A program made the position numbers. A stretch of 64,000 nt of DNA. It comes from a virus. Lineage: Duplodnaviria > Heunggongvirae > Uroviricota > Caudoviricetes. Positions 39,001-42,000 of the stretch are shown one piece after another; position 1 is the stretch's first letter; each line of letters opens with the position of its first letter. The stretch lies in IMG/VR virus record IMGVR_UViG_3300046047_000272; one strand, given 5' to 3'.

Positions 39001-42000
39001 GTTATTGTTAAGACGATGGATTATGGTGTAATACTTAGTAAAAGGCGCTTTTAATAGCGTGACGAGATTATACGACAATCTCATTCATATACAAATATCC
39101 GGTATCGGATCATATCTATCACGTCAAAGAAACGTGATAAGGAAGGGAATGATTACATGAACAAGACCATAAAGATGCTGTCTGGCGTCATTGGTGCGGC
39201 CATGATCGCGGCATTGATACCAGCGACGGCCTCAGCTGCTACGCCAACGGGATCAATAACCGTTGATAACGTGGAGGATGGCGTATCCATAACCGCCTAC
39301 CAAGTCGTGACGGCCAATGTCAACGAGGACGGATCACCGAATGATCCTGAGTACACTTGGAACACCAAGCTACAGGATTTCGTGAAGAGCAATTATCCAT
39401 CATACATCAATGCCTCTAACGGATCTGTAACCACGGCATTCAATAAGGACCTGCCGGCTGAGTCAACAGCAGCCTTCTTCGACAAGGTCGCTGCTCAGAT
39501 CAGAAGCGGAAACATTGCTATTGAGGCCGCTAAGACCATTGAATCGGGCTCAGCTTCGTCAAACGTGTTGAGTGATCTCCCCGCAGGTCAATACCTCGTT
39601 CTCATTGAAAAGGGTAAGAACGTCTATCGACCATCAGTGGCTAATGTGACGCCAGTAGATCAGGACGGATCATGGGCTATAGCGAATCCCACTCTAGAAA
39701 TTAAGGAGAGCACACCAAGCATCGAGAAGACCGAGTCTGATAACGACACGCAATTCGGTCTTAACGATACGGCTCGATTCCAACTGTTGTCAGACGTTCC
39801 TGTCTATCCGTCGAACTCATTGGATAAGACGTATGCGATTTCTGATCGTCTACCGGCTGGACTATCCTTCAACAATGATGTCGTCGTTACTGGCGTCAAG
39901 GGATCTGACTCCACGATATTGACTGCTGACGCTGGAGATTTCACGCAAAGCGCAACTGATGTAAAGGGCAATGCTACCACATTCACCCTCAAATTCAATT
40001 ATGATAAGGTGTCAGCATTTGACGCTATCAAAGTGACGTATAGCGCTAAGATTAATGATCAGGCCGTCATCACTGACGGTAACACGAACACCGCTTCTAT
40101 TGAATACACGAATAAGCCATATGACACCGATGGATACACGACTGACACCAGTAAGGTCACCGTGTACACCTATGGCATCAAGGTCCTAAAGACTGACGAG
40201 GACGGAAAGACGCCTTTGTCAGGTGCAGAGTTCGAGTTGAAGAATGATCAGGGCAAGGTTGTGTCTACTCAGACATCTGATAAGGATGGATTACTGAGCT
40301 TTGATCGACTTGATGTTGGCACATACACGATCACTGAGACGAAGGCACCAGCCGGATATGTCAAGAAGGCTGATGTCACGACAGTGACGATTACTGACGC
40401 TGATAAGGATGGTAAGGTTGATGGTGCATCGACAGGATATGCATCGGTATCAATAACTAATTCGAAGTCATTCGAGCTTGGTAAGACCGGCGCTACCGGC
40501 ATTGCCGTATTAACGGCTGCAGGCATCCTGCTCATTGCTGGTGGATCTCTTATTCTTATGAAGAAGAAAGCTAACAAGAATGCGTAAGTTGCTGCATAGC
40601 ATCGTTAAACGAGGGTTGCCCCTACTCTTAATTGTAGTAGGAGCGACCCTCGTCGCTGCTCCAGCCATATTTAACATCGTGACATCAATGCAACATCAGA
40701 AAGTATTATCCACGCAACAACAGGCCACAAAATCGCTATCATCGGCATCAATCAAGAAACAATGGCGGCTAGCAGAACAATACAATAACAGTCTTATCGG
40801 GCAACCAGTAAAGGACCCATTCGTTGAGGGCTCAGGAGCAATCGTTCCGAAGAATTATGATGCCATTCTTAATGTCAATCATGATGGCGTTATGGGAGAA
40901 ATCAAAATACCGAAAATCAAAGTTGATCTTCCCATCGGCCATGGCACAGACGACAAGACACTTGAGGACGGAGCTGGGCATACCAGGCAGACCAGTCTTC
41001 CAATCGGAGGATCGTCAACACATTCCCTGATCATTGCCCATCGTGGATTACCACGAGCAGAAATGTTCACACGGTTAGACGAATTACAATTAGGGGACGT
41101 CTTCACTATAACCGTCTTAGATAAAACACTCACATATCAAATTGACAAGATCAGCGTCGTCGATCCAGATGACCTCAGTCAGATATCCATTATCAAGGGA
41201 CGGGACCTAGTAACGTTAATGACGTGTACGCCATACGGCGTCAATACGCAGCGACTGCTCGTCAGGGGAACCAGAATACCTAATCAATCAGTGGCTAACA
41301 CTGTGCAACCATCAGTAACGAGTATGGGACTTGAGGGATGGGCAAGGATCATTGGACTTATCATTGGCGTAGTTTCATTACTCGTACTCATGATAACCAT
41401 CATACGAAGAATAAGATCACGCCACAAGACAACCAGTAAGTGACGACAACCAGTCTAAACCGCCCTCCTCGGACGCGGCCATGAGTATCAGTAATTATAC
41501 GAGTACTGACCCCGCGTCCGTTAGACCGGCGGTTCTGTTTATCTTATGGACATGCTAGGTCGTATCTTCGTCAACGAAGACTTAGATCACGTAGAAGCCT
41601 ATCAGACCAGTAGGCTCTCTAGGTCACTATCTCAGTAGATCCAGTGGAAACATCATACTCTAGCGTGCAGAACGCATCTACGGGAACCGCGACATCGCAA
41701 CGATAGAGCGTGTGCACGAGGAAGCATATCCTAGGAATACGCTCTACAGGAGCGGAACATCACTTGCCAGTATCACACCATCGTGATATGATATTGTCAT
41801 CCTAAGGACATCACTAAAGAAAGGCTCACCCACACTATGAACGTCGTTGAATCAAATGGCCTCATTAACGTTTATCAGGGAGGAGTAGAACTTCACCGAG
41901 AGCTTCCCCCAGACGATTACAAGATCGTCAAGGACATGTCTGGACTTCATCTGAAACGCTATCATGGCATGAAGCAAGACACGCAAGTGTATGGTCATCG

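Follow-up and report, generated by a model that had tools for sequence, protein, structure and literature searches.

Can a phage build a pilus on its host? The question is raised by a pilin and sortase gene pair in a 64,000-nucleotide stretch of DNA (the window, meaning here the whole stretch analysed) from IMG/VR record IMGVR_UViG_3300046047_000272, classified in the Caudoviricetes. The window holds approximately 60 open reading frames (ORFs) at 45% GC and represents 13% of a 491-kb contig; an identical sortase is recorded on a Joint Genome Institute (JGI) contig of 491,046 bp. An earlier note on this DNA had described a pilin followed directly by a complete class C sortase, a pilin C-terminus reading FELGKTG in place of LPXTG and a large adhesin ending in LPSSG, and all three observations proved correct. 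We lean towards the view that the carrier is a huge phage in which a functional, sortase-dependent pilus module has long been resident, and that the likely role of the module is to build a pilus on the infected cell.

A shaft pilin and its class C sortase

Hidden Markov model searches placed both members of the pair above the cut-offs of their family models, at the following positions:

39157..40587, plus strand: major (shaft) pilin ORF, 476 amino acids, SpaH/EbpB-type by family models
Pilin residues ~1–27, plus strand: signal peptide of the typical, cleavable type (MNKTIK..ATASA, cleaved before A)
39703–39705, plus strand: pilin-motif Lys183, invariant in 27- and 43-sequence alignments
Pilin K191-D230-N311 (CnaA-type) and K345-E394-N435 (CnaB-type), plus strand: predicted isopeptide triads, residues invariant in the same two alignments
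Pilin residues 389–400, plus strand: E-box YTITETKAPAGY, which includes E394
40477–40491, plus strand: pilin sorting signal L441-G-K-T-G445, in the C-terminus FELGKTG
Pilin residues 446–468, plus strand: hydrophobic transmembrane stretch, then a KKKANKNA tail, read from the sequence
40580..41443, plus strand: class C (pilus-polymerising) sortase ORF, 287 amino acids, its start overlapping the pilin stop by 8 nt
40814–40822, plus strand: sortase lid D79-P80-F81; P80 and F81 invariant, D79 at least 90% conserved
41039–41041, plus strand: sortase catalytic His154
41225–41227, plus strand: sortase catalytic Cys216, in TLMTC
41252–41254, plus strand: sortase catalytic Arg225
Sortase N-terminal signal anchor and C-terminal helix (residues ~251–285), plus strand: membrane anchors, from the AlphaFold model

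The pilin scored 117 bits (cut-off 95) against NCBIfam NF033902, the SpaH/EbpB family LPXTG-anchored major pilin, and profile searches also matched it to TIGR04226 and to Pfam GramPos_pilinBB, SpaA and Gram_pos_anchor. Its AlphaFold2 model (predicted local distance difference test, pLDDT, 91.3) has a three-domain shaft-pilin fold, and the closest solved structures are all shaft pilins: Clostridium perfringens CppA, Streptococcus pyogenes T6, Streptococcus sanguinis PilA and Corynebacterium diphtheriae SpaD. Lys183 lies between domains D1 and D2 and aligns with the INPK of CppA. The residues around it read LEIK (EIK) instead of the canonical YPK; the family motif is x-V-x-V-K-S, with V-K-S in most members. 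From their conserved residues, isopeptide bonds would be expected at both triads.

The sortase reached 258.9 bits (cut-off 160) with the class C model NCBIfam NF033745 and matched PF04203 (E 3e-25), while the class D and class E models fell far under their cut-offs (57.7 bits for class E). All three catalytic residues are invariant in 32 aligned sequences, so that the catalytic triad is intact, and the His-Cys-Arg spacing of 62 and 9 residues is that of Actinomyces oris SrtC2 (H184-C246-R255). The AlphaFold2 model (pLDDT 83.2) matched class C structures at template modelling (TM) scores of 0.81–0.89, the top solved match being A. oris SrtC1 (2xwg; 48% identity, TM 0.85–0.89). The JGI gene call of 251 amino acids is too short, since homologues share the N-terminal signal anchor. 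Class membership predicts that the enzyme would polymerise the pilin through a lysine isopeptide bond. This is the only sortase ORF in the window, and a C-terminal sorting-signal scan of all window ORFs returned two substrates only, the pilin at 39157–40587 and the adhesin ending at 3451.

The LGKTG sorting signal

Within the pilin signal, L441, T444 and G445 are invariant in the family, and the Pro of LPXTG is replaced by Gly; all 119 other listed pilin homologues have [L/F]PxTG at the aligned site. The codons are CTT GGT AAG ACC GGC. We do not regard the Gly as a sequencing slip, since changing any Pro codon (CCN) to GGT needs two base changes and an independent Logan assembly (SRR16378897, 11,723 bp) is 100% identical over 30000–41722. 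Every other shaft-pilin residue that is invariant in the family is present, which argues that the gene is under selection rather than decaying. The pilin is thus best described as a variant family member, predicted to work as its family does with a non-canonical motif.

The change could instead make the pilin a poor or uncleavable substrate, either as a decaying gene or as a ‘poison’ subunit that jams host pili, for example against pilus-dependent superinfection. Pro occupies position 2 in at least 90% of the family and in every one of the 119 close homologues, and the only other Gly at this position was seen once, in the IGKTG that ends an unrelated giant adhesin of 2861 amino acids with CnaB repeats (P0444). 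Against this, all other functional residues are conserved, both ORFs are intact and translationally coupled, and the dedicated sortase belongs to a clade that serves a small residue (Ala) at position 2 and shows further changes at specificity sites; the ameliorated codon usage described below implies long retention under selection. We therefore consider a poor substrate quite unlikely. A further rare position-2 variant, LSKTG, was seen in a Bifidobacterium-like pilin (L156) on a contig of 2x coverage and is possibly an error.

A displaced adhesin and the lineage of the module

The third component lies at the left edge of the window, where translation confirmed it:

2..3451, plus strand: tip-adhesin-like surface protein, partial, running off the left window edge with its N-terminus beyond
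Adhesin architecture, plus strand: beta-propeller-like repeats, an SdrD-B domain, three DUF7507-like repeats and a C-terminal SpaA/CnaB domain, from domain searches
Adhesin C-terminal SpaA/CnaB domain, plus strand: E-box YRLIEVQAPTGY, from the sequence
3341–3355, plus strand: adhesin sorting signal LPSSG, followed by a transmembrane stretch and an RKR tail, from translation

Its C-terminal domain is 38% identical to adhesins directly upstream of the pilin in two bacterial loci, L006 (LPASG) and L007 (LPFSG, Clostridia-type).

Where the pair comes from was addressed with a neighbour-joining tree of 51 sortase catalytic domains. The nearest sortases, on bacterial contigs, are 46–56% identical over the full length and 63–66% over the catalytic domain. 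They form a sub-clade marked by LPI[G/A]H in place of LPIYH, together with GHxRQTSLPIGG, AEMFTRL and TFTITVL. The phage sortase is sister to this bacterial clade in 162 of 200 bootstraps, and the bacterial clade alone is recovered in 199 of 200. Partner pilins were read wherever a sub-clade sortase sat on a usable contig. Directly upstream of each of these sortases is a pilin ending in LAxTG and GAAGIA (five distinct pilins), with LATTG in L006, L089, L090 and L091 and LANTG in L220 and L221. The phage pilin ends LGKTG-ATGIA where these bacterial pilins end LAxTG-GAAGIA, and a search of 1.84 billion representatives yielded another pilin of this type, LAQTG-AAGIA (P0517). A sampling of one genome per GTDB species, from which 80 loci were retained, contained no member of the LAxTG sub-clade.

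One of these loci can be placed in a genus. L220 is a chromosomal contig of 94 kb and 60% GC with a dnaK-grpE-dnaJ-merR-type cluster, and its DnaK is 93–94% identical to that of several Bifidobacterium species, which places it in Bifidobacterium. Its operon encodes an adhesin (1220 amino acids, ending SLPSSG), a pilin (LANTG) and a sortase (LPIGHG); the L006 operon likewise runs adhesin (LPASG), pilin (LATTG), sortase. On the strength of the adhesin homology and the lineage of the pair, the phage has the complete gene trio of such an operon, its adhesin gene displaced by 35 kb.

A wider set of approximately 170 class C loci, drawn from genomes and metagenomes, puts both unusual signals in context. 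Position 2 of shaft-sized substrates is Pro in 111 cases and Ala in four, all four in the LAxTG clade; Gly occurs only in the phage. Ser at position 4 was found in 13 of 61 adhesin-sized substrates and in one of 115 shaft pilins. LPxSG is thus a normal tip-adhesin signal, found as LPSSG in L220 itself, and L[A/G]xTG, with a small residue at position 2, is the signature of the sub-clade; ‘degenerate’, the earlier note's word for these motifs, is the wrong one. Judged from these comparisons, the odd motifs are traits of the lineage that supplied the module and not signs of decay, and that source would be a Bifidobacterium-type three-gene operon of adhesin-LPxSG, pilin-LAxTG and sortase.

Right after the adhesin lies a TnpB/Cas12f-like gene (3834–5294, plus strand; PF07282, E 2e-16) with an overlapping ORF at 5143–5955. 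Its 56% GC and its foreign codon usage (correlation 0.56, where the window averages 0.81) set it apart, and a recent insertion sequence (IS) insertion is its probable origin.

Specificity sites of the sortase

The earlier note had also suggested that the motifs reflect a sortase of altered specificity, and the LAxTG sub-clade offers comparative support. We compared the phage sortase and nine members of the LAxTG clade with 41 other class C sortases, and five positions stood out:

Position 46: Q in the phage and the clade; Y in 40 of the 41 others
Position 78, directly before the lid DPF: K or T in the phage and the clade (K in the phage); mostly H in the others
Position 120: G or A in the phage and the clade (G in the phage); mostly Y in the others
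Position 152, two residues before the catalytic His: A in nine of nine clade members, I in the phage; each of the 41 others has S, T or C
Position 135: T in the phage alone; clade members have I or V, and the others L, I, M or V

M214 is also common to the phage and the clade, and is present in some other class C sortases too. The Staphylococcus aureus SrtA sequence used for alignment carries H120, C184 and R197 at the expected places; its residues 104, 118 and 182 align with phage positions 135, 152 and 214. In SrtA, residue 104 sets specificity for motif position 2, as in an LAXTG-specific variant, and residues 104, 118 and 182 jointly set position 4, as in an LPXSG-specific variant (PMC9126251). 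The natural clade differs at 152 and the phage alone at 135, so the equivalents of two of the three sites changed by directed evolution for LAXTG and LPXSG enzymes differ here. These substitutions, at the equivalents of SrtA 104 and 118, are suggestive of a phage sortase retuned in specificity, with matching changes in its substrate groove.

A simpler single-site covariation, in which Tyr to Gly/Ala in LPIYHG would explain Pro to Gly/Ala in the substrate, was rejected: in five loci the partner pilins of LPVGHG and LPISHG sortases have LPQTG or LPKTG, and the association between LPI[G/A]H and substrate holds at clade level only. We also considered whether LGKTG and a sortase with Thr135 and Ile152 might constitute a private sorting code, orthogonal to host LPXTG and LAXTG sortases, which strikes us as possible though doubtful. 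If it were so, phage pili would be polymerised by the phage enzyme alone, insulated from host sorting or competing with it, and a virus would be using, to re-surface its host, a natural equivalent of the orthogonal sortases evolved in the laboratory.

Residence of the module in the element

Composition indicates that the module is at home where it is found. Codon-usage correlations with the window are 0.84 for the pilin, 0.76 for the sortase and 0.94 for the adhesin, against a mean of 0.81 (standard deviation 0.08) for the other 57 ORFs, and the GC content of all three genes matches the element, where the bacterial relatives have 53–60% GC. The module is native to the element and long resident, and the ameliorated codon usage implies long retention under selection. 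The flanks of the pair carry the following features:

38917..39156, no strand: divergent intergenic region upstream of the pilin, containing its ribosome-binding site; promoter presumed
8 nt upstream of the pilin ATG, plus strand: Shine-Dalgarno sequence AAGGAAGGGA, a good match by sequence inspection
41451..41548, plus strand: G+C-rich long hairpin, then TTCTGTTTATCTTAT, a T-rich run; starts 8 nt after the sortase stop

The hairpin (−51.4 kcal/mol, z −4.4) was matched in stability by none of 200 shuffles and is likely to be the terminator of a bicistronic pilin-sortase unit. It belongs to an element of approximately 98 nt with six intergenic copies (41451–41548, 43015–43112, 43421–43518, 9047–9144, 9525–9622 and, on the minus strand, 6972–7069), which keep an outer stem CCGCC...GGCGG followed by TTCTG and, over the six, show little covariation. 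The pair is divergent from the minus-strand ORFs upstream and closed by this element-specific, terminator-like repeat, and so forms a discrete two-gene unit.

Might a bacterial pilus locus nevertheless have been misjoined to phage DNA during assembly, or arrived as contamination? The closest sortase relatives are chromosomal, and the one INPHARED sortase match that was inspected, MT835974.1, is a bacterial-type locus. A second assembler, however, gave an identical 11.7-kb contig running from phage ORFans (orphan ORFs) through pilin and sortase; GC and codon usage are those of the element and not of Bifidobacterium (53–60% GC); the third component sits 35 kb away in the same genome; and a repeat found across the element follows directly after the sortase. 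A chimera is therefore very unlikely indeed, and we take the module to be a resident part of the element. As for the INPHARED matches themselves, there are 16, all in unannotated records, with Listeria and Enterococcus ‘phage’ contigs among them; the one inspected, MT835974.1, is the best, and we found no verified case on a phage. MT835974.1 (L224, ‘Bacteriophage sp.’, UNVERIFIED) encodes a D-Ala-D-Ala carboxypeptidase, a signal peptidase, an adhesin, a pilin and a sortase, and is probably bacterial DNA in a virome.

The surroundings of the pair hold other features of note. A consensus promoter scan of the pilin upstream region found no sites beyond chance. Directly upstream and divergent lie six consecutive minus-strand ORFans (32765–38916) with no Pfam or PHROG match, among them acidic proteins of 489 and 513 amino acids, with hydrophobic segments in the 513- and 193-residue products. 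A second repeat of approximately 103 nt occurs at 41651–41753, 43215–43317, 8833–8876 and 9299–9342; the 44 nt at its core are identical at three sites and differ by a single base at the fourth, and no such recurrence would be expected by chance. Rfam gave no match in 41440–43620. Together the two repeats make up a cassette that may act as terminator and promoter, or may represent a family of small RNAs belonging to the element.

Phage or megaplasmid

Is the carrier a phage? The window encodes phage-type replication and takeover proteins, namely rIIA (E 3e-45), rIIB, T4 gp30.3 (E 3e-51), a deoxynucleoside monophosphate (dNMP) kinase and a gp44-like clamp loader, along with a class I ribonucleotide reductase with NrdI, a transglycosylase and many ORFans. 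Directly downstream of the sortase is an ATPase gene (phrog_2376, E 6e-81), which has matches in 384 phage records and 49 IMG/VR contigs, and rIIA-like matches number 2477 phage records against 13 plasmid records, the latter only to the N-terminal ATPase-like part. The earlier note had thought lysogenic conversion possible; no integrase or repressor was found in the 64-kb window. Its approximately 60 ORFs, from 13% of the contig, also include no Rep_3, ParA/ParB/ParM or conjugation families. The host would be Gram-positive; the pilus module points to Bifidobacteriaceae, and the ATPase and rIIA to phages of Firmicutes and Actinobacteria generally. The phage carriage claimed by the earlier note thus stands as far as gene content goes, and is short of proof in a window without a capsid or terminase gene; we judge the element very probably a phage.

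Several points weigh against a functional pilus module on a phage. Profile and PHROG searches found no capsid, portal, terminase or tail genes in the window, and the sortase-bearing genomes of one huge-phage collection have been described as conjugative megaplasmids, ‘Hodors’ (2026 preprint, PMC12934698). Related phages with the module were also missing: an INPHARED DNA search, an exact 21-mer search in IMG/VR and pilin and rIIA searches in IMG/VR found none, and a synteny search around 49 homologues of the downstream ATPase, reaching 10 kb to each side, turned up neither sortase nor pilin nor adhesin, so that the same pair is not seen in a related phage genome by any of these routes. A metagenome scan did not bring up the 491-kb contig itself, and extension past the window edges gave short Logan contigs only. 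The pair lies approximately 35 kb from the adhesin, whose link to the sortase is by homology with bacterial operons only. Gly at position 2 is unique among the shaft-sized pilins examined, at a site where the equivalent of Pro442 is conserved in at least 90% of the 43-sequence alignment, and its cleavage is only predicted. Finally, the pilin body is 32–41% identical to LPxTG pilins of Clostridia and 27–36% to LAxTG pilins; being nearer the former, it suggests that the module may be a mosaic.

An alternative reading, given a window that has no capsid or terminase gene, takes the element for a megaplasmid, or another large Gram-positive mobile element with acquired phage-like genes, and the pilus for ordinary plasmid cargo. 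Hodors are 211–389 kb in size with 44.6–47.1% GC, TnpB and Phage_lysozyme2 domains and giant sortase substrates, and their sortases are of classes A and B, plus C in group 1 (PMC12934698). The window resembles them in its GC content (45%) and in having both a TnpB gene and a Phage_lysozyme2 domain. Among the plasmids in PLSDB, 674 carry class C sortases, some of them megaplasmids of Bifidobacterium longum, and the lone structural match in the window is weak evidence of a virion (ORF 15941–16564 with phrog_1383, ‘virion structural protein’, the sole structural PHROG match). On the other side stand rIIA/rIIB, gp30.3, the dNMP kinase, the clamp loader, a tRNA array and IF3 in a window without Rep_3, ParA/B or conjugation families; rIIA-like proteins are nearly absent from plasmids, and the contig, at 491 kb, exceeds the Hodor size range. 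The likely Hodor-type loci, L001–L004, have sortases just 35–40% identical to the one studied here, LPLTG substrates and an adjacent protein of approximately 2630 amino acids. A megaplasmid is on this evidence unlikely, and we continue to treat the element as a huge phage. Those four loci, the IMG/VR sortase matches on contigs of 209–420 kb, were considered as relatives of the element and rejected on the same grounds of identity, substrate and neighbour, since they look like the published megaplasmids.

Other genes of the window were recorded in passing. IF3 is encoded at 58623–59219 (plus strand; Pfam IF3_N and IF3_C; phrog_9787, E 4.5e-36). An RNA-repair and tRNA set at 5952–6647, 7157–8632, 43600–44061, 44103–45365, 59274–60260 and 61736–63931 comprises two polynucleotide-kinase/RNA-ligase or phosphatase proteins (phrog_8238), a HAD ‘Swiss Army Knife RNA repair’ domain, an HD phosphohydrolase and a tRNA-nucleotidyltransferase-like protein; with the seven tRNAs of the array (Pro x2, Asn, Lys x2, His, Leu), so rich a set suggests counter-defence against host tRNA nucleases. 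A match to phrog_13226 is split over 27376–28803 and 28800–29888 (plus strand; profile positions 4–450 and 469–711); homologues from Microcystis and Acinetobacter phages bear the annotation DNA topoisomerase I, and here the gene is split or carries a frameshift. Membrane and envelope-stress genes (22330–23652, 31290–32699, 15941–16564 and ORFs without a location) include TelA and SPFH/flotillin, and LemA, VKOR and TM2 domains were seen only in a pooled scan of the window, without placement to an ORF.

A model for pilus assembly on the infected cell

How such a module might act can be set out as a scheme, in which we infer LGKTG cleavage, fibre formation, the timing of expression and the benefit to the phage alike. 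The pilin and adhesin would be exported by Sec during infection, each held in the membrane by its C-terminal sorting signal. The phage sortase (Cys216, His154, Arg225) would cleave the pilin after the Thr of LGKTG, giving a thioacyl intermediate at Thr444, and would probably cleave the adhesin too, after the second Ser of LPSSG. Lys183 of an incoming pilin would resolve the intermediate, building a covalent fibre with the adhesin at its tip, and either the housekeeping sortase of the host or the phage enzyme itself could pass the finished fibre to the cell wall (lipid II). The actinobacterial housekeeping sortase is of class E and prefers LAXTG (PMC8225981). For the phage, the benefit we favour is either adhesion or aggregation of infected cells, giving niche retention and nearness to new hosts, or masking and remodelling of the cell surface.

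The earlier note had offered virion decoration as another role. On that reading the sortase would attach the pilin or the adhesin to the phage particle. Domains of the CnaB and Ig-like kinds are indeed frequent on virions, but nothing in the analysis itself speaks for such a role. The pilin signal peptide is of the cleavable type, pilin and adhesin carry membrane-retention sorting signals and the sortase is membrane-anchored at both ends, so that in topology all three resemble proteins of the cell surface, being exported and retained at the membrane; sortase chemistry would take place outside the membrane, while tailed phages assemble in the cytoplasm. Virion decoration is thus highly improbable, and a pilus on the infected cell is the function that we prefer.

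Comparison with known systems

The closest functional parallels are the pili of Actinobacteria (A. oris FimA/CafA-SrtC2 and FimP/FimQ-SrtC1, and those of Bifidobacterium), which likewise consist of a tip adhesin, a shaft pilin and a dedicated class C sortase, and share the DPx lid, the His-Cys-Arg spacing, the pilin-motif Lys, the CnaA/CnaB isopeptide domains and the E-box. The present system differs in its phage-like carrier, in an adhesin 35 kb away, in LGKTG rather than LPLTG and in LEIK rather than YPK. Also close are the operons L220, L006, L089, L090 and L091, of uncultured Bifidobacterium type, with which it has in common the LPSSG tip signal (L220), a shaft signal of the form L-small-x-T-G-A-x-G-I-A and sortase residues Q46, K/T78, G/A120 and M214; unlike them, the phage has Gly for Ala at position 2, Thr135 and Ile152, 45% GC (53–60% in the operons), a pilin body with only 27–30% identity to theirs and genes that do not lie side by side. 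The housekeeping sortases of class E, with LAXTG substrates, are alike in the small residue that replaces Pro at position 2, but the phage enzyme is of class C by model score (258.9 vs 57.7 bits), by its lid and by its pilin partner.

Hodors resemble this element as very large, Gram-positive-associated metagenomic elements with sortases and surface proteins that were first taken for huge phages. Their sortases, however, act on giant substrates that exceed 2600 and 7300 amino acids in length, and Hodors carry Rep_3, Par and conjugation genes (PMC12934698); the window is without these replication and conjugation features and has T4-type replication and rII genes instead. The same preprint states that sortases are unreported in phages, and our full-text literature searches found no report of a phage-encoded sortase. 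If the reading that we favour is true, this would be the first credible case of a sortase system in a genuine huge phage, complete with pilin and adhesin. Phages would then be able to equip Gram-positive hosts with a covalently linked surface fibre, and the genes responsible would form a new class among those that remodel the host surface. The class C clade with LAxTG and LPxSG signals would in addition provide natural templates for orthogonal sortase ligation (LGxTG, LAxTG, LPxSG) and a testable hypothesis for how class C enzymes read signal positions 2 and 4.

Phage-borne surface proteins have a precedent in SasX, an LPXTG protein on a staphylococcal prophage that alters the host surface and needs the host sortase. 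In contrast to SasX-type phages, the phage described here supplies the polymerising sortase and the full pilus set itself. What is new is thus a known machine, assembled from well-known families, in a new carrier and with an LGxTG variant of the sorting signal.

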